Both the position numbers and the translations under genes were made by a program. From IMG/VR virus record IMGVR_UViG_2684622618_000019: 6,955 nucleotides of DNA. One strand, written 5' to 3'. Positions 1 to 6,955 of the stretch are shown here, one piece after another. How positions within the stretch are numbered: position 1 is the first letter of the stretch; the number at the start of each line of letters is the position of its first letter. Below the pieces are notes generated by a model. That model was given only the letters and a program-made list of their open reading frames with translations. It was not told the DNA's origin and searched no databases. The stretch comes from a virus. Taxonomy: Duplodnaviria > Heunggongvirae > Uroviricota > Caudoviricetes.

Positions 1-98
1 CCCAGGCGAACCAGCACCTCCGCACACGGCTGTGCCACATCACGGATATCCCCGGCCCGGGCATCATGCGTGCCCTGCAGATATCGGATCTTTGCCAT
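1..98 (-). CDS. hypothetical head-region protein, N-terminal 32 codons only (continues beyond window start)
   Basis: ATG at 98-96 on the minus strand, open in frame to position 1 (MAKIRYLQGTHDARAGDIRDVAQPCAEVLVRL...). Lies directly downstream of the capsid gene. No family recognised; the only strong SD is about 31 nt upstream, separated by a hairpin. Confidence 0.35.
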   Translation of the reverse strand, partial: MAKIRYLQGTHDARAGDIRDVAQPCAEVLVRL

Positions 99-106
99 AA
101 CCTGTT

Positions 107-128
107 ACGGGAGGCGCACGCCTCCCGT
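107..128 (-). other. GC-rich stem-loop between capsid stop codon and next start codon
   Basis: Minus-strand RNA ACGGGAGGC-GUGC-GCCUCCCGU: 9-bp perfect stem, 4-nt loop. No U-tract follows, so not a canonical terminator. Confidence 0.5.
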
Positions 129-142
129 CCTCCTTATCAGAC

Positions 143-2080
143 TCAGCCGCCGGACGCACTGCCGTAGTTCACTCCGGTGATCACCGCCACCGCCGCAGTA
201 CGGCGACGACGCCAGTTGATCCAGCGCTCCGCACGGATGGCCACGCTGCCTGTCTGGAACATGGAAACCAGCTCCACCGGGGACGGCGTGGTACTGTCGC
301 CGCCCGGCTCAGACTGCATTTCCAGTGATGCCTCGCGGGACATATCCACTGCCACGCCGCCGTCATCCGCCAGATAAATATCCGGGGCATTCACCAGCAC
401 CAGCTGGTCACCCACGTACTGGGAGACAATCACCGGCAGCCCCTGGAAGGAGCCACCCAGCAGGGTCATGTCCGGGTATTCCTTCTGACCCAGCGCATTT
501 TTACGCATGGACAGTGCCAGGGCATTGGTGCTGGACATCAGCCAGACCGCACCGGTGGGCTGCAGGTTTGCTGCCACAAACTGTCCAAACGCAGCCTCGG
601 CATCCGCATCCGGGTTACCGGTTGATGCCGTGCCCTTCACATCATGGGTGATGGACGCCGGGGAGACATCTGCCACTGCGGCTTTTTTCGGGTCCACAAA
701 GTCTGTATCCAGACGCGCCACCACCGCTTCCGCCAGCGCATTACGGACCAGTGCATCAGCAGCCGGACTGGAAAAACGGATCAATTCTTCCGTCAGTACC
801 GCAATGGCCGACACCTTCGCATGACTGAAGGTGATGGATTCAAAATCAAACTTCGTCAGGGGTTTTGCCTTACCCTCACCCACCCAGCCGGCAGCACCGC
901 CGGACACCTGGGCGTGCACACGGATATTGAATGGCACCTGACGAAGTGCAGGGATCCCGCCCTGACCAAATCGCCCGATAATGGTCTGCGGACGCAGGTA
1001 ATCAATAAAGTCCTGTGCGTATTCCTGATATTCAGACAGGCTGCCTGCCCACTGCGGATCCGTGGTGGTCCCCGCGCCCACTGCCGATTTCAGGACATGA
1101 TGCAGACGACTGTCATCCGGATACTGACGACGGGCCACTTCCAGGGCTTCAGATCGGACGCCTTTAGCCGCAGCCAGCGATTTGGCAAAGCGGGCGAAGC
1201 CAATCCCCTTATCCAGTTTCTGCTCCACACGGATCACCGGCGCAGAAGCCACCGCGGCCACATTCCCGTTACCGGCCTGTTTCACCGGCTGCGCCGTGGC
1301 GGCCTTACCGGCTTCCAGTTCACGCAGGCGCTTCAGGTGCGCATCCACCTGACGGATTTCCGCTGCGGTGTTGTCGTAATGCTCTTCCTCCTCCACATCC
1401 AGCGTGCGCCCTTCCTCTGCGGCTTTGGTCATGACCTCCTCAAGGGAGGCTGCCAGCGCTGCACGCTTGTTTTCAAAACTTTTAATCTGTTCGCCAATAT
1501 TCATTATGGTCTTTTCCTTATGAAAAACGGTTGTTGACTGTGCCGCAGCGCCGGCAGAAGATGCGATTTTCACCACCGGTTTCCGGTTGCCGGACGCGGC
1601 AGAAAACGGGCGGTCGTAAGATTTAATGGTCCGGATGGTGCATTCCGCATTCGCGGGCACGGTGACGGCAGACACCTCCATCAGTTCCCAGCGCAGAAAA
1701 TGCAGTCCGCCTCCGTCCAGAAAGGTGTATTCATGGGGACGGAAGCCCACGGACAGCCCCCTGACCAGCCCGGTCTTAATGGCCGCCCAGACCTCATCCA
1801 GCCGGGCAGCCAGTTGCGACGGCATATCCGGTACGGGCTTCACCAGTGTTGCCGTGATTTCCAGCCCTTCGCTGACCCGGCGCACCGTACACTGCCCCAC
1901 CGGGCGGGAATGGTCATGCTGCCAGAGAAACGGGATCGCACTGCCAAACTCCGCGCCCTCCGGCTCCAGGATGTCACCATCCCGATCCGGAGAAGGCGTT
2001 GACGCAATCCCGGTGATCACCCGTTCATCCTCACTGAAGGATTTCACCGTCAGCAGGGAACAGGCCCGTTTAAGAGTCAC
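143..2080 (-). CDS. prohead protease / major capsid protein fusion (HK97-like)
   Basis: 645-aa ORF with GTG start at 2080 preceded by AGGAGG at 5-nt spacing. The N-terminal ~190 aa carry a prohead-protease-like His region (LWQHDHSRP) and a Ser about 54 residues later (VRGLSVGF). From the internal Met at codon 193 (ATG 1504-1502, AAGGA 10 nt upstream) the sequence has a coiled-coil delta-domain-like start (MNIGEQIKSFENKRAALAASLEEV...) followed by a long HK97-fold-like capsid body. One uninterrupted reading frame. Confidence 0.8.
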   Translation of the reverse strand: MTLKRACSLLTVKSFSEDERVITGIASTPSPDRDGDILEPEGAEFGSAIPFLWQHDHSRPVGQCTVRRVSEGLEITATLVKPVPDMPSQLAARLDEVWAAIKTGLVRGLSVGFRPHEYTFLDGGGLHFLRWELMEVSAVTVPANAECTIRTIKSYDRPFSAASGNRKPVVKIASSAGAAAQSTTVFHKEKTIMNIGEQIKSFENKRAALAASLEEVMTKAAEEGRTLDVEEEEHYDNTAAEIRQVDAHLKRLRELEAGKAATAQPVKQAGNGNVAAVASAPVIRVEQKLDKGIGFARFAKSLAAAKGVRSEALEVARRQYPDDSRLHHVLKSAVGAGTTTDPQWAGSLSEYQEYAQDFIDYLRPQTIIGRFGQGGIPALRQVPFNIRVHAQVSGGAAGWVGEGKAKPLTKFDFESITFSHAKVSAIAVLTEELIRFSSPAADALVRNALAEAVVARLDTDFVDPKKAAVADVSPASITHDVKGTASTGNPDADAEAAFGQFVAANLQPTGAVWLMSSTNALALSMRKNALGQKEYPDMTLLGGSFQGLPVIVSQYVGDQLVLVNAPDIYLADDGGVAVDMSREASLEMQSEPGGDSTTPSPVELVSMFQTGSVAIRAERWINWRRRRTAAVAVITGVNYGSASGG

Positions 2081-2090
2081 ATCAGCCTCC

Positions 2091-2119
2091 TGAAAATAAA
2101 AAAACCGCCGCAGCGGTTC
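2091..2119 (-). terminator. candidate intrinsic terminator or attenuator between terL and the protease-capsid gene
   Basis: Minus-strand RNA GAACCGC-UGCG-GCGGUUU followed by UUUUAUUUU, starting about 25 nt after the terL stop and running straight into the SD of the next gene. The stem is short (4 GC pairs plus A-U and G-U). Confidence 0.45.
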
Positions 2120-2143
2120 ATGATGGTTACAGTGTGAACAGGG

Positions 2144-3805
2144 TTATATGAAAAAAACCGCATATTCTTTCTTTTTCGGTTCCGGGTTAAGGGACATCAG
2201 GGAGACCGCATTGAACAGCGCCATCAGCGGGTCAATTTTTCCCCGTCCACTGGCCTGTTTGGTGATAAGAATGGCGTTACCTTTAGGCTCCACCCGGGCA
2301 TTGCCGACACACCAGGCCATCAGGGGCTGGTCACCATGCACCAGCACCCCTTCAGCCAGTTTGCGCTCGGTGGTTTTAATGGCCCCGCCCAGTTTCCAGC
2401 CCTGGCTTATCCCCACCACAATTCCGTCGGGGATCCCGGCTTCCGCCAGTGAATCCAGAATCTGCCCCACCCCTGACGGGTCAATACCGATATGGTCCAG
2501 TAACTCAGCCTCATGAATGCGACGCACATATTCCGCCACTTCCGCCGTGTCATCCCCGACACGCCGGACAATGGTCATATCTCCACAGGCAACAAGATCC
2601 TGAAACCGGGACGCCTCGCTCTTCCGTCGGACCACCGCGGTTTCATGCGCCCAGGCATGGCCCCAGCCCAGCCATTCGCGGGTTTCCCTGTCACGGCCAA
2701 TCACGTACATTCCCAGCAGATCATCCAGGCCCCCGCCGTCAATCCCCACCGTCACCACATCAGCGCGCTGCAGGATATCGTCCAGGCTGACGCGCCTGCC
2801 CTGCTGCTCCCAGAAATCCGCACCCGCCCAGCGGTCAGAACGCAGGGCAAGACCAATTTCCACATTGGCATGTTTTGACATGAAGCCACGAAATGCTTCC
2901 TCACCAGCCTCCCGGGCTTTACGGTACTCCCGGTACAGAAAAGCCTCATCCACCGAATAACCGAGATTCGGGTTAACCATGGCGAGGTTTTCCATCAGCA
3001 GGTGAGCCCCGCTTTCCACCATTTCAGGAGGATGCTCAAAAATCACCGGCAGAAAGTGCGGATCATGAATTTTGCCGTCACGGACATCCCGGGCGTACTG
3101 CAGTTTCTGTCTGAACACCCCGGCTGGCGGCTCATTCGACTGGGTGGTCGTATACACCACAAACCCTTCCGGGCGGGAGGCAAGGCCGCCTATGGCTTCA
3201 CGTAACATGTCCTCCGCTTTGTACTGCTTGCCAAATAACCACAGTTCATCAATCAGCGTCCCCACGGACTTGATACCGGATACCGTATTCGGATCGGCAG
3301 CCACCACCTTCAGGGTGGTGTCCGTCACCCTGTGGGTGATGGTCCGGATATGTGTCTGCACCTGACAGAGGTCATCCAGATCATCGTCCCGTCGTACCAT
3401 ATCCCTGGCAGGGTTGAAGGCGTTAGCCGCCACCTCCACGGTCGGGGCCAGAATGGTGTAGCCCGCCGCCTGCCGCCAGTTCAGTAACAGCGCCGTCATC
3501 ATGATCCCGGCAGCCAGCGTGGACTTGCTGTTTTTCTTGGGGATAAGGATAAAAACTTCCTTGATATGGCGTACACCGGTCTGCGCATCGTAGGAGCCAA
3601 ACAGGGCCGCCACCAGGTCAAACACCCACTGTGCGCAGGACTCCCCGAACGTCGGGCTGCCCGGTGCATCCACAATCCGCAGTTGTTTAAAAATCGCCAG
3701 GGCATGTGCGGCCTGCTCCGGATAAATCGGAGCCGGAATAATCGACAGCCCCTTTTTCAGGCGCTCTGCCCAGTCCGGGCAGGCCGTGCTCCACACAGGT
3801 ATCAT
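2144..3805 (-). CDS. terL: terminase large subunit (Terminase_1 / HK97-type)
   Basis: 553-aa ORF. ATPase-type motifs IPKKNSKSTLAAG and LIDELW, nuclease-domain motifs VGIDGGG and KIDPLMALFNA. ATG 3805-3803 overlaps the terS stop as ATGA; GAGGG SD upstream. Confidence 0.9.
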   Translation of the reverse strand: MIPVWSTACPDWAERLKKGLSIIPAPIYPEQAAHALAIFKQLRIVDAPGSPTFGESCAQWVFDLVAALFGSYDAQTGVRHIKEVFILIPKKNSKSTLAAGIMMTALLLNWRQAAGYTILAPTVEVAANAFNPARDMVRRDDDLDDLCQVQTHIRTITHRVTDTTLKVVAADPNTVSGIKSVGTLIDELWLFGKQYKAEDMLREAIGGLASRPEGFVVYTTTQSNEPPAGVFRQKLQYARDVRDGKIHDPHFLPVIFEHPPEMVESGAHLLMENLAMVNPNLGYSVDEAFLYREYRKAREAGEEAFRGFMSKHANVEIGLALRSDRWAGADFWEQQGRRVSLDDILQRADVVTVGIDGGGLDDLLGMYVIGRDRETREWLGWGHAWAHETAVVRRKSEASRFQDLVACGDMTIVRRVGDDTAEVAEYVRRIHEAELLDHIGIDPSGVGQILDSLAEAGIPDGIVVGISQGWKLGGAIKTTERKLAEGVLVHGDQPLMAWCVGNARVEPKGNAILITKQASGRGKIDPLMALFNAVSLMSLNPEPKKKEYAVFFI

Positions 3806-4365
3806 CCGTTGCCCTCATTATCATTATTCACCACCAGGCGGGGTGGTGGTGGCACCGCAAAACGGTTAGCCGCTTTTTTCGCCGCGTCACCTTTTGCCGA
3901 TTTTTTACCGGCATCCCCTTTTTTGTGGTGCGTGAACTGCGCCAGCTTATAAGCCGCATCCAGCGCCAGCCTGGGGTCGGTATTAATGTTCTCCACCAGA
4001 AGACGCCCCATCGCTTTCACCGGATCGGGAAGACCGTCCTCCATATACTCAATACCAGGAGATATCACCACGGGCGGTGGCATCTCCGGATTTGTTTCGT
4101 CCGGCTGTGGTATTGCAGCCGCCTCACGGCGACGGGGTTTATCCTCCGGCTCTGATTTTTTCTGCCGATAAACAGGAACCTCATCCACCTCCACCGTCTC
4201 GCACTGTTTACGGGCTATAAACGCAAGCACCTCCGGATCTTTTGCCAGCTGCGAGCCTTTAACCCTGGCTGTCTTCGCCGAATAACCGGCGGCAAGGGCT
4301 GACGCTGTTTTGTTTTTCCCGGACATGAGCGCCAGCGCAAATTTTCGTTTTTGCGTTGTCAGCAC
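3802..4365 (-). CDS. terS: terminase small subunit (Terminase_2-like N-terminal DNA-binding region)
   Basis: 187-aa ORF with GTG start at 4365 preceded by GGGAGGAGG. N-terminal motif KRKFALALMSGKNKTASALAAGYSAKTARVKGSQL is typical of this terS family. Translationally coupled to terL by a 4-nt overlap. Confidence 0.8.
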   Translation of the reverse strand: MLTTQKRKFALALMSGKNKTASALAAGYSAKTARVKGSQLAKDPEVLAFIARKQCETVEVDEVPVYRQKKSEPEDKPRRREAAAIPQPDETNPEMPPPVVISPGIEYMEDGLPDPVKAMGRLLVENINTDPRLALDAAYKLAQFTHHKKGDAGKKSAKGDAAKKAANRFAVPPPPRLVVNNDNEGNG

Positions 4366-4439
4366 AGCCTCCTCCCGGGTCCAGAACGCACTCAGCCGGG
4401 TATGGTTCAGCCCATTTTTCCCGGCGTCTCATGCCGCAA

Positions 4440-4563
4440 ATGTTAACTGCTGCCTGGTTAACATTTGCTGAAAAAGCCTGTTAACATTTTTTCCGCACAA
4501 CAAACTGAATAATAAAGATAAAAACCGCAAAAATGCCCGGGCAGCCAGTTAACATGTTAACTG
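4440..4563. promoter_or_regulatory. array of CAGTTAACAT-type half-sites including an 18-bp perfect palindrome; candidate terminase recognition (cosB-like) region
   Basis: Half-sites at 4440-4447 (ATGTTAAC), 4457-4464, 4480-4487 (GTTAACAT) and the perfect palindrome CAGTTAACATGTTAACTG at 4546-4563. All sit in the 289-bp HNH-terS intergenic region. Confidence 0.35.
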
Positions 4564-4654
4564 CCCTGAAACGGGAATTTTTTCTCTGCGTGAGAGGGGG
4601 CGCGGTGTCCAGGGCGATCGTTTTTTTTCGCCGGATGATCCCCCCCGGGTCTGG

Positions 4655-5020
4655 TCACAGGCCAGTGATTCCGTCGGCCCTGAGCGTGCCATCAGGAAGC
4701 TCAGGCAACGTCGGATCAGGCATACCACTCGCCGCTTCACTCGCTGACTTCTGGCGATGGCATTCAGTACAGAGGGTCCAGAGGTTCGTCTCCTCATTAC
4801 CACCACCGAACTGAAGTGCAATGCGGTGATCGAGTTCACTGTCACAAAGGTCAACCACGCGTCTACAGAGACAACAGTGTCCGGCATCCCTCCGCCAGAT
4901 ACGACGTTTGAGGGAAACCCGGGCACTGCCACTGACACGACGCTGTTCCCCCCTCAGGACATTTATCCGCCGGGTGTTCAGAGTTTTGATTCTGCCCGGT
5001 AACGTACGAAGCACAGCCAT
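4655..5020 (-). CDS. HNH endonuclease (phage packaging-associated)
   Basis: 121-aa ORF; HNH core HCCLCRRVVDLCDSELDHRIALQFGGGNEETNLWTLCTECHRQK. ATG at 5020 with GAGGA 6 nt upstream. Position immediately upstream of terS is typical of HK97-like cos phages. Confidence 0.85.
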   Translation of the reverse strand: MAVLRTLPGRIKTLNTRRINVLRGEQRRVSGSARVSLKRRIWRRDAGHCCLCRRVVDLCDSELDHRIALQFGGGNEETNLWTLCTECHRQKSASEAASGMPDPTLPELPDGTLRADGITGL

Positions 5021-5061
5021 GTAAAATCCTCGCCATATAGCTTGTCACCAGAGGAAAGAAA

Positions 5062-5289
5062 ATGTCATCGAAAAACCGGCCCCGCAGAACAACAACCCGC
5101 AACATCCGATTTCCAAACCAGATGATTGAACAAATTAACATCGCTCTTGACCAGAAAGGTTCAGAAAATTTTTCTGCGTGGGTCATTGAATCTTGCCGCC
5201 GGGAGCTGGCAGCAGACATAAAATATGCCCGTCAGTTGACTATAAAAAAGAATGATACACAGTATGCTCTGCGATGGCTGTTCATATAA
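5062..5289 (+). CDS. YlcI/YnfO-like small protein (DUF3950-like), copy A
   Basis: 75-aa ORF, ATG 5062 with GAGGAAA SD. The core NIALDQKGSENFSAWVIESCRRELA is conserved at protein level with the fragment at 5738-5848 despite many synonymous nucleotide differences, which argues for real coding. Family name is from memory of E. coli prophage YlcI, not a search. Confidence 0.7.
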   Translation: MSSKNRPRRTTTRNIRFPNQMIEQINIALDQKGSENFSAWVIESCRRELAADIKYARQLTIKKNDTQYALRWLFI

Positions 5290-5420
5290 CTATTTCTTTA
5301 TATTGCTGAATTTATAAAAACTCACAGACATTAGCTGTATTAATTCCGAATTGAAATAATCAGCCATATAGAATAAAAATAAAGCATAACAATAATAATC
5401 TTCTACCCAATCAGTACATT

Positions 5421-5452
5421 ACTGCTGTGACTCCAACACGGCAGTTTTTTTA
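5421..5452 (+). terminator. intrinsic terminator (plus strand)
   Basis: ACTGCTGTG-ACTCCAA-CACGGCAGT (9-bp stem with one G-U) followed by TTTTTTT; about 130 nt downstream of the YlcI-like gene. Confidence 0.6.
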
Positions 5453-5468
5453 TTGAACAGATTCCAGT

Positions 5469-5642
5469 TTCTTCCACCATCGCACCGGACGGGCGACCAT
5501 GAGGGGAGAACGCCGCGCTCCGTTTACGCGGTAAACCCCGGTGTGTATCGTTTTTGATTATCCCCGCACACTCTCGCAGAGGAGTCTCCCTGTCGGGCTG
5601 CGGTCTCTGTTAATGCAGGAATACGGCGACGATACGGCGCAT
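5469..5642. repeat. 174-bp conserved non-coding element, copy A
   Basis: Direct repeat of 6286-6459 with 9 mismatches in 174 bp (about 95% identity). Flanking sequence on both sides is unrelated between copies. No reading frame is conserved between the two copies. Confidence 0.9.
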
Positions 5643-5651
5643 CAGCAAAAC

Positions 5652-5687
5652 TTAGTTCAGGCACTGAGTGCGGATATAGTCCTGTGC
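5652..5687 (-). CDS. 3' end of a second Rz-like i-spanin gene, truncated by the gap
   Basis: Minus-strand translation ...AQDYIRTQCLN-stop (TAA at 5654-5652) parallels the C-terminus of the Rz at 6723-6955 (...LQEYIRTQCIN-stop); the nucleotide stretch 5662-5684 matches 6733-6755 at 22 of 23 positions. Confidence 0.55.
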   Translation of the reverse strand, partial: AQDYIRTQCLN

Positions 5688-5737
5688 NNNNNNNNNNNNN
5701 NNNNNNNNNNNNNNNNNNNNNNNNNNNNNNNNNNNNN
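5688..5737. other. run of 50 N: assembly or scaffold gap of unknown true length
   Basis: Exactly 50 N. Genes on both flanks are truncated by it and cannot both fit into 50 bp. Confidence 0.95.
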
Positions 5738-5848
5738 AATATCGCCCTTGAACATAAAGGTTCCGGTAACTTTTCAGCGTGGGTTATTGAAGCCTGCAGA
5801 AGAAGGCTGTCAACAGAGCGTTCGGGTATGAATTACATAATTAAGTAA
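5738..5848 (+). CDS. YlcI/YnfO-like small protein, copy B, C-terminal part only (5' end lost in gap)
   Basis: Frame starting at 5738 gives NIALEHKGSGNFSAWVIEACRRRLSTERSGMNYIIK-stop (TAA 5846-5848), matching the core of the 5062-5289 protein. No in-frame start exists in the visible sequence left of the gap. Confidence 0.65.
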   Translation, partial: NIALEHKGSGNFSAWVIEACRRRLSTERSGMNYIIK

Positions 5849-5977
5849 CATGGTGTTCACAGAACACACAGTTACCGGACACATCAGTTTTCCATTCGTC
5901 CCCCGGCAGTACAGGCTTCCCGTCTGACGGGATAGCCTGAAAAAACACAGAAAATTATTTGTTATAATTAATATAAC

Positions 5978-6118
5978 TTACTCAAAAAAAAGCGACGAGA
6001 AAATCAGCATCAACGAGCAATAAGCGCCAATACGTGATAACAAATGGCAGCCATATTTATCTGCAGTATAAGCAATGGACAGGATAACCACACCAGAAAC
6101 CGTCAGCATAAAATCCAT
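5978..6118 (-). CDS. 46-aa hydrophobic small protein (candidate membrane peptide); not in the supplied ORF track
   Basis: ATG 6118-6116 with GAGGAAG 8 nt upstream, TAA at 5980-5978. Product MDFMLTVSGVVILSIAYTADKYGCHLLSRIGAYCSLMLIFSSLFFE has two hydrophobic stretches. Sits in an AT-rich insert present only in copy B of the module. Confidence 0.4.
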   Translation of the reverse strand: MDFMLTVSGVVILSIAYTADKYGCHLLSRIGAYCSLMLIFSSLFFE

Positions 6119-6285
6119 TTGAACTTCCTCGGACAAAATCGACTCATCTAAAGATTTACAGCTCTTTTTATTATCAATATGTTAAAAGTAAAATAAACAG
6201 ATGTTCAATAATACGAATACAAAAACGTGCTGAAAATCAATGAATCCATTTCTGTGTTATCAATTAATAGTGATAAACATCCGGC

Positions 6286-6459
6286 TTCTTCCACCATCGC
6301 ACCGGACCAGCGACCATGAGGGGACAACGCCGCGCTCCGTTAACGCGGTAAACCCCGGTGTGTATCGTTTTTGATTATCCCCGCACACTCGCGCAGAGGA
6401 TTCTCCCGGTCGGGCTGCGGTCTCTGTTAATGCAGGAATACGGCGACAATACCGCGCAT
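6286..6459. repeat. 174-bp conserved non-coding element, copy B
   Basis: See copy A (5469-5642); constant offset of 817 bp. Confidence 0.9.
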
Positions 6460-6474
6460 GAATAATAAGGTCGC

Positions 6475-6699
6475 TCAACACACTGGCTGTAATGCAGCGG
6501 ATACCATGCGGCATTTAGCGGCATTCATCGTACACTCAACGGTTAGCTCTTCATTCGTGGCATTCACCTGAAAGGTCCTGGAGTGTAATTGCGTACATTT
6601 ACCACTGAACGAACCTTCAACAAGAACACGACCACGCTGCAAAATACGGAACGGAATTGTTCCCTGAAAAGGCTTTACGGTTACCAATAATTTCTTCAT
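6475..6699 (-). CDS. 74-aa hypothetical protein inserted between Rz and the 174-bp element
   Basis: ATG 6699-6697 with GGAGA SD 6 nt upstream; the track's TTG at 6717 is less likely. Product MKKLLVTVKPFQGTIPFRILQRGRVLVEGSFSGKCTQLHSRTFQVNATNEELTVECTMNAAKCRMVSAALQPVC has 4 Cys and no recognised family. Absent at the equivalent position in copy A, where the Rz stop lies 9 nt from the repeat. Confidence 0.5.
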   Translation of the reverse strand: MKKLLVTVKPFQGTIPFRILQRGRVLVEGSFSGKCTQLHSRTFQVNATNEELTVECTMNAAKCRMVSAALQPVC

Positions 6700-6722
6700 G
6701 CATTCTCCGAATAACAAAAATA

Positions 6723-6955
6723 CTAGTTAATACACTGAGTGCGGATATATTCCTGAAGCATTCTCAATGCTGCCTGGTCGCTGATGATTCCGTCTCTGAT
6801 ACCGAGAACGTTTCGTCCAGCAACCGGAGAGAGTTCGACGGCGGCATCATTGCCCACGCCGGAGGTGCCGGTGGCTTCACGCACGGTACCGGGGCAGGTG
6901 GCGTTGATCCGCAGGCGCTTACGACCAGCGGCAACATCAGCACGCAGAGTTTCAT
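6723..6955 (-). CDS. Rz: i-spanin Rz, C-terminal 76 codons (5' end beyond window)
   Basis: Minus-strand frame from 6953 reads ...TGTSGVGNDAAVELSPVAGRNVLGIRDGIISDQAALRMLQEYIRTQCIN-stop (TAG 6725-6723), a lambda-Rz-like C-terminus. Contains Rz1 embedded in the +1 frame. Confidence 0.8.
   Translation of the reverse strand, partial: ETLRADVAAGRKRLRINATCPGTVREATGTSGVGNDAAVELSPVAGRNVLGIRDGIISDQAALRMLQEYIRTQCIN
6764..6955 (-). CDS. Rz1: o-spanin Rz1 lipoprotein, embedded in Rz
   Basis: 63-aa ORF MKLCVLMLPLVVSAC... with lipobox VSAC and the proline-rich stretch CVKPPAPPAWAMMPP, close to lambda Rz1. ATG lies at the window edge, so upstream context is unseen. Confidence 0.8.
   Translation of the reverse strand: MKLCVLMLPLVVSACGSTPPAPVPCVKPPAPPAWAMMPPSNSLRLLDETFSVSETESSATRQH

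Follow-up and report, generated by a model that had tools for sequence, protein, structure and literature searches.

A run of 50 N joining two prophage contigs of Escherichia coli O157:H7 as a draft-assembly artefact

The window analysed here, a stretch of 6,955 nucleotides filed as IMG/VR virus record IMGVR_UViG_2684622618_000019 (Caudoviricetes), contains a single run of N, exactly 50 N long and located at positions 5688-5737, and the question raised by this locus is what the run stands for. Taken literally, the window suggests one prophage in which Rz and ylcI/ynfO are both truncated and the lysis-to-packaging module occurs twice. At the left edge of the gap, the reverse complement of positions 5652-5687 translates as AQDYIRTQCLN followed by a stop codon, which is the exact C-terminus of the 155-amino-acid Rz of the Sakai prophages Sp9 and Sp10; this minus-strand Rz 3' end of 11 codons plus stop is truncated at the contig end, and 144 codons (432 nt) are absent. 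At the right edge, positions 5738-5848 (plus strand) translate as NIALEHKGSGNFSAWVIEACRRRLSTERSGMNYIIK followed by a stop codon, and these 36 codons correspond to residues 26-61 of the 61-amino-acid YlcI/YnfO-family protein of the Sakai prophage Sp6, the first 25 codons (75 nt) being absent. The same nucleotides are found at positions 6001-6111 of the Sakai Sp6 locus (L002), where the complete gene occupies 5926-6111. The original prediction had described a 50-N gap between a minus-strand Rz-like 3' end and a plus-strand YlcI-like gene lacking its 5' part, and had considered the missing gene parts too large for 50 bp. Both statements are confirmed, as at least 507 nt of coding sequence are absent at the gap (432 + 75 nt) and, these being on opposite strands, the gap cannot be 50 bp.

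The family assignment of the broken genes was obtained with their complete versions. Full-length Rz from Sp6 matches the Pfam family Phage_lysis (PF03245, E 1.5e-39), the left 11-residue fragment being too short for a match of its own, and a Pfam match was also obtained for Sp6 Rz1 (E 5.6e-21). The full-length YlcI/YnfO protein of Sp6 matches DUF3950 (PF13132) with 70.7 bits (E 9e-20, cutoff 25), and so does, with 62.6 bits (E 3e-17, same cutoff), the product of the left YlcI/YnfO gene, which is an intact gene of the Sp9/Sp10 type at 5062-5289 (plus strand, 75 amino acids, equal to ECs_1967 and ECs_1788). Both DUF3950 genes of the window (5062-5289 and 5738-5848) are antisense to the late operon and adjoin the HNH/terminase region, and their sequence pattern resembles, by eye, that of a ribbon-helix-helix DNA-binding protein. 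A terminator-like hairpin is present 3' of the left gene at 5421-5445. Among the papers listed under the names YlcI, YnfO or DUF3950, many of them unrelated to the protein, no functional study was found.

On both sides of the gap the same module is encountered, consisting of an Rz end, a conserved block of 180 nt, an AT-rich spacer and a YlcI-like gene on the opposite strand. The module had been predicted in this form, except that the conserved element had been given a length of 174 bp and measures 180 nt. The two copies of the block, both on the minus strand (5463-5642 and 6280-6459), are 94% identical, the 32-nt Rz ends (5653-5684 and 6724-6755) are 88% identical, and the YlcI-like gene is complete on the left (5062-5289) and truncated on the right (5738-5848). 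Right of its copy of the block, the window holds the 3' 233 nt of an Sp6-type Rz gene (6723-6955, minus strand), which runs past the window end and has Rz1 embedded at 6764-6955. Outside the 180-nt block no alignment between the spacers of the two flanks was obtained, and the right module has two extra ORFs compared to the left one. These two ORFs, which occur in the Sp6-type module only, are a strongly hydrophobic small ORF of 46 amino acids in an Sp6-specific spacer (5978-6118, minus strand, Sakai ECs_1538) and a hypothetical ORF of 74 amino acids (6475-6699, minus strand, Sakai ECs_1536); both are without a Pfam match and without an assigned function.

Judged from its sequence, the window is E. 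coli O157:H7 prophage DNA, and the two contigs have distinct origins within it. Aligned end to end, the left contig (1-5687) shows 100% identity with Sakai Sp10 (NC_002695.2, 1946710-1952396) and with its counterpart prophage in at least 30 complete E. coli genomes, of which nearly all are O157:H7, and its final 1288 nt are also identical to Sakai Sp9. With Sp10/Sp9 it has in common the protease-capsid gene, TerL, TerS, the HNH 'DNase', the YlcI-like gene and the Rz end; whereas Sakai goes on to Rz, antirepressor, endolysin and holin, the left contig ends after 36 nt of Rz. Identity of 100% was likewise obtained between the right contig (5738-6955) and Sakai Sp6 (NC_002695.2, 1560275-1561492). 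The flanks are thus two versions of one lysis-to-packaging module, as had been predicted, one of the Sp10/Sp9 type and one of the Sp6 type, and at 100% identity the pieces are already-known sequence. A chimeric origin of the left contig from Sp6 and Sp9, considered because Sp9 differs at 18 sites where Sp6 agrees, was rejected, as the whole contig is 100% identical to Sp10.

Among the Sakai prophages, Sp9 (L001) and Sp10 (L003) are identical from the window equivalent of 3926 to about 7770, and Sp6 (L002) and Sp10 are identical over the window equivalent of 1-5090 and nearly identical again at about 5780-8270. The three prophages are mosaics of exact repeats several kb long, with abrupt switches between them, a pattern that is typical of recent recombination between resident prophages.

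If the two flanks were neighbours in a real chromosome, a query running across the gap should find them together. Window positions 4400-6955 were therefore used as a single query on 5,426 complete E. coli genomes. Hits no more than about 1.8 kb apart were merged into one place, and true adjacency of the flanks would yield about 98% query coverage. The flanks were adjacent in none of the 5,426 complete genomes; the best single place reached 86% coverage and was the Sp6 locus alone (1955 bp). In agreement with this, no adjacency of the flanks was detected in the phage collection, the junction of flank, 50 N and flank is absent from IMG/VR and from the GTDB representative genomes, and none of the fetched prophage loci contains a 50-N run or both flanks together. 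As expected of a false join, the flanks of the N-run are not collinear with any finished genome searched, and the claim that the run marks a contig join is borne out.

Distances between the flanks were obtained for 8 complete genomes in which both best places were listed (best place per record only, to be read as examples and not as a census). The flanks are on the same strand in ECP19-798 (216,602 bp apart), PA20 (217,762 bp), SRCC 1675 (385,054 bp) and Sakai (385,217 bp), and on opposite strands in 3384, Xuzhou21, 20R2R and 611, with distances ranging from 616 to 712 kb over these four. Tandem prophages would have the two modules within one prophage length, and this was not found, since the smallest distance is 216,602 bp and the flanks are on opposite strands in four of the eight genomes. 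The suggestion of tandem or multiple related prophages therefore holds in so far as the flanks belong to related but different prophages; the tandem part of it is not supported, as complete O157:H7 genomes have the loci either inverted or separated by 216 kb or more.

The relation between the two contigs becomes evident from a three-way alignment and an exact-run test. From position 1 to position 5090 the window and Sp6 have the same base throughout; Sp6 diverges from 5091, and from there on all diagnostic positions agree with Sp9/Sp10 and differ from Sp6. Positions 1-5090, with packaging and head genes, are a collapsed multi-copy repeat, identical in Sp10 and Sp6 and, from 3926, in Sp9, and positions 5091-5687 are the Sp9/Sp10-type branch after the Sp6 fork, which is the branch taken by the left contig. 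Sp6 is thus base-identical to both 1-5090 and 5738-6955; it differs from the window in what precedes the right-contig sequence, which in Sp6 is the packaging module and 46 nt and in the window is an Rz end. These 46 nt (CACAATCCGCAATATCCGTTTCCCCAATCACATGATTGAACAGATC) separate the equivalent of 5090 from the first base of the right contig, so that Sp6, with an intact 61-amino-acid YlcI gene, is obtained when 1-5090 is followed by the 46 nt and 5738-6955. The start of the right contig is the Sp6 equivalent of window position 5137, which lies 551 nt before the end of the left contig. Sp6 thus parts from the window after 5090, which makes the right contig the other, Sp6-type continuation of the collapsed repeat and not the sequel of position 5687; its true position overlaps the left contig. 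The N-run had been predicted to stand for an unknown and probably large stretch or for a contig join; the second possibility proved right, whereas no stretch is missing between neighbours, because the right contig belongs after 5090.

Very probably, then, the window is one of the small scaffolds of a draft short-read assembly (5687 nt + 50 N + 1218 nt), in which a collapsed prophage repeat had the wrong branch appended. The source genome would be of the E. coli O157:H7 type, with several near-identical lambdoid prophages. Repeat 1-5090 would have been assembled once and extended by 597 nt along the Sp9/Sp10 branch (5091-5687) up to the next repeat, inside Rz, and the right contig would be the Sp6-specific branch leaving the left contig at its internal fork. 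The scaffolder may have put the right contig after the left one on the strength of read pairs, or of an alignment to a reference, that linked the collapsed repeat to the Sp6 branch, and the implied distance from 5687 to 5738, about -551, could then only be entered as a gap of set or minimal length, here 50 N. The gap would then hold nothing, the Sp6-type locus would be 1-5090 followed by the 46 nt and 5738-6955, and the Sp9/Sp10-type locus would be window 1-5687 followed by the remaining 432 nt of Rz and onward. The way in which the scaffolder made the join, like the identity of the assembler, is what we infer here; the sequence identities, the distances in complete genomes, the place of the fork and the geometry of the contig ends are observed. 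One point speaks against this course of events: the left contig crosses internal forks at 84-197 and 3925 relative to Sp9 and at 5090/5091 relative to Sp6, which would need a repeat-resolution step by the assembler.

Mis-scaffolding of collapsed repeats is known in short-read de Bruijn assemblies, and the likeness to the present case is that a repeat is assembled once, one branch is appended and the other is linked by pairs, and contig ends fall k-1 bases from paralog differences. The difference is that here the 50 N could not be tied to a particular program. The widely used ABySS scaffolder writes distances below 50 as 50 N, and the conclusion is independent of this; no scaffolder was confirmed from the literature to have 50 N as its smallest default gap. 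According to published work, the prophages of O157 are too repetitive and paralogous to be resolved with short reads (PMC5359411), so that an artefact of this kind is to be expected.

The ends of the contigs were compared with the positions at which other copies of the sequence differ. Window position 1 immediately follows the last base at which Sp10 and Sp6 differ (position 0, C versus T), and 28 Sp10/Sp6 differences are found in the 300 nt before the window start; position 1 is therefore the expected start of a shared unitig. The right contig ends at 6955, which is 6893 + 62, and 6893 is the last position at which Sp6 differs from Sakai Sp9, Sp10 and Sp5. The left contig ends at 5687, which is 5625 + 62, and at 5625 there is a difference from the Stx1a phage Stx1_131719 and three IMG/VR prophages that are identical beyond the end. 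At 5738, the start of the right contig, the offset is 62 nt as well (5800 - 62), and four IMG/VR prophages first differ at 5800. At none of these three ends does another copy, the same locus in Sakai or another strain excepted, stay identical for more than 62 nt. The contig ends fit a de Bruijn assembly with k=63, in which unitigs would end k-1 = 62 bases from such differences, and their position suggests that the window is the whole scaffold. As in a false join, the contig ends coincide with repeat boundaries, and the prediction that the assembly breaks at the repeat is thus supported.

On the gap side, the paralogs with a difference exactly 62 nt away come mostly from other E. coli (IMG/VR), one type being from O145/O111, and the Stx1_131719 copy, which applies to the left contig end, is the only one from a Shiga-toxin phage. 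The Rz-end variant of the L023 type is present at 100% in ST131, O55:H7 and other strains, and no O157:H7 strain was among the best 40 matches listed for it; the paralog of the L080 type is the one found in O145 and O111. Phages YYZ-2008, Stx2c_JNE121036, PPyecE_EH1910 and VT2-Sakai were tried as the paralogs behind the gap-side ends and rejected, since they show no difference at the critical positions.

Other explanations of the join assign a real content or a real position to the gap. The contigs might stand in their true Sakai order (Sp10 or Sp9, then Sp6, in the same orientation) with the 50 N replacing about 216-385 kb that were omitted, for example by a reference-guided orderer. Sakai, PA20, SRCC 1675 and ECP19-798 do share the order and orientation of the flanks in the window, but the flanks are on opposite strands in the other four of the eight complete genomes, and more than 200 kb of mostly unique chromosome between the contigs would have been assembled and placed. 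Such an omission, which we regard as improbable, also leaves unexplained why the window starts at the start of the Sp6/Sp10 repeat and why the fork lies at 5090, both of which are covered if the wrong branch was appended to a collapsed repeat. The flank order and orientation would equally fit real tandem or neighbouring prophages of the Sp10/Sp9 type and the Sp6 type, with an N-run hiding about 45-50 kb of early region and tail and head genes, and O157 prophages are known to recombine and move (PMC5359411). However, none of the listed complete genomes has this arrangement, the flanks coming no closer than 216 kb, about 45 kb is more than ordinary short-insert pairs could span, and the link between the contigs is already explained by the Sp6 branch of the fork, which makes a tandem pair very improbable.

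If the N's replaced about 50 real bases, the window would contain a genuine rearrangement junction truncating Rz and ylcI. The literal length of the N-run agrees with this, but both genes are truncated at positions without mutual homology, both ends fit the geometry of de Bruijn repeat boundaries, and the junction was found neither in complete E. coli genomes nor in phage records, IMG/VR contigs or GTDB representatives; we consider a real 50-bp junction extremely unlikely. For a genuine strain-specific junction and a tandem arrangement taken together, the chance is small. Hardly credible is a single locus read twice with sequencing errors, an alternative that the original prediction had named as something that would refute it: the flanks do have a common gene order and the 180-nt block, but their spacers cannot be aligned outside this block (94%), the right module has its two additional ORFs, and each flank perfectly matches a distinct locus in complete genomes, by which the alternative is refuted.

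The 50-N join is an ordinary draft-assembly artefact and not a biological feature, and no open biological question is addressed by it. Left uncorrected, it would mislead efforts to call pseudogenes, count prophages and compare synteny in O157:H7; once the collapsed repeat and the wrong branch are recognised, both real loci can be reconstructed.

The 180-nt block contained in both modules was analysed separately. It has sharp edges and completely variable flanking sequence, and it is located between Rz and packaging genes in 398 phage records and more than 120 IMG/VR contigs, also in phages with unrelated packaging modules; phage lambda lacks it. In the GTDB species representatives it was detected in five contigs only, two of them labelled Escherichia, and the other three (from MAGs or an unrelated genome) are probably contaminant contigs. 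A protein-coding function was rejected, since 3 of 7 diverse copies, the left one of the window among them, have stops in the reading frame; the indels among copies, of 1, 9 and 17 nt, are not multiples of three. In some phage records an ORF of 81-86 amino acids over the block is called 'Rz-like spanin', as in VT2-Sakai (NC_000902.1, 27500-27760; L005, 1443-1703) and phi419 (PV189407.1, 59575-59820; L008, 843-1088), and because stops interrupt the frame in other copies, this label is probably a mis-annotation.

No match of the block to an Rfam family was obtained even at E<=1. The possibility that it corresponds to one of the EHEC prophage sRNAs AgvB, AsxR, Esr41 or STnc100 was rejected, as no Rfam covariance model matched, and an identity with AgvB, AsxR or Pas was likewise rejected; AgvB and AsxR are located at the PR' moron site (PMC4104026). 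Neither the core sequence of the block nor the neighbouring locus tags were found printed in the literature.

Structure tests were performed with an alignment (A1) of 47 distinct closely related copies from loci L001-L133. A consensus structure of 35 pairs was obtained for the late-operon strand, which is the minus strand of the window, and 98.7% of its cells can pair, compared to 88.5% for the mirror structure on the opposite strand. The consensus folding energy is -31.7 kcal/mol on the late-operon strand and -16.5 kcal/mol on the opposite strand. Column-shuffled alignments of the late strand gave a mean of -16.1 ± 3.7 kcal/mol, corresponding to a z of -4.2 with 0 of 200 shuffles as low, and the z of the opposite strand is -1.5. 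The folding energy of single sequences of the block is not unusual. Variation at paired positions is nearly all kept via G-U wobble, one pair covaries (G-C in 25 copies, U-A in 11 and G-U in 7), and a variable hairpin is swapped wholesale for different complementary sequences among the copies. The evidence for structure, drawn from alignment and folding, is suggestive and not conclusive, and we tentatively propose that the block might be a structured RNA not described so far, which the late transcript of lambdoid coliphages would carry between the lysis and packaging genes. If so, the 180-nt RNA could serve as a processing or regulatory element.

The remaining genes of the window, all on the minus strand, belong to the collapsed repeat. 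A fusion of prohead protease and major capsid protein with 645 amino acids is encoded at 143-2080 (Phage_capsid, E 5e-14; Peptidase_S78, E 2e-8) and equals Sakai ECs_1972. It is accompanied by the terminase large subunit at 2144-3805 (Pfam TerL_ATPase and TerL_nuclease), the terminase small subunit at 3802-4365 (Pfam Terminase_2, E 4.5e-8) and an HNH endonuclease at 4655-5020 (Pfam HNH, E 5e-6), which bears the annotation 'DNase' in Sakai. The 290 nt that separate the HNH gene from terS contain several repeats of the GTTAACA/TGTTAAC type at 4440-4565, and these are plausibly a candidate cos or small-terminase binding region of an HK97-like packaging module.
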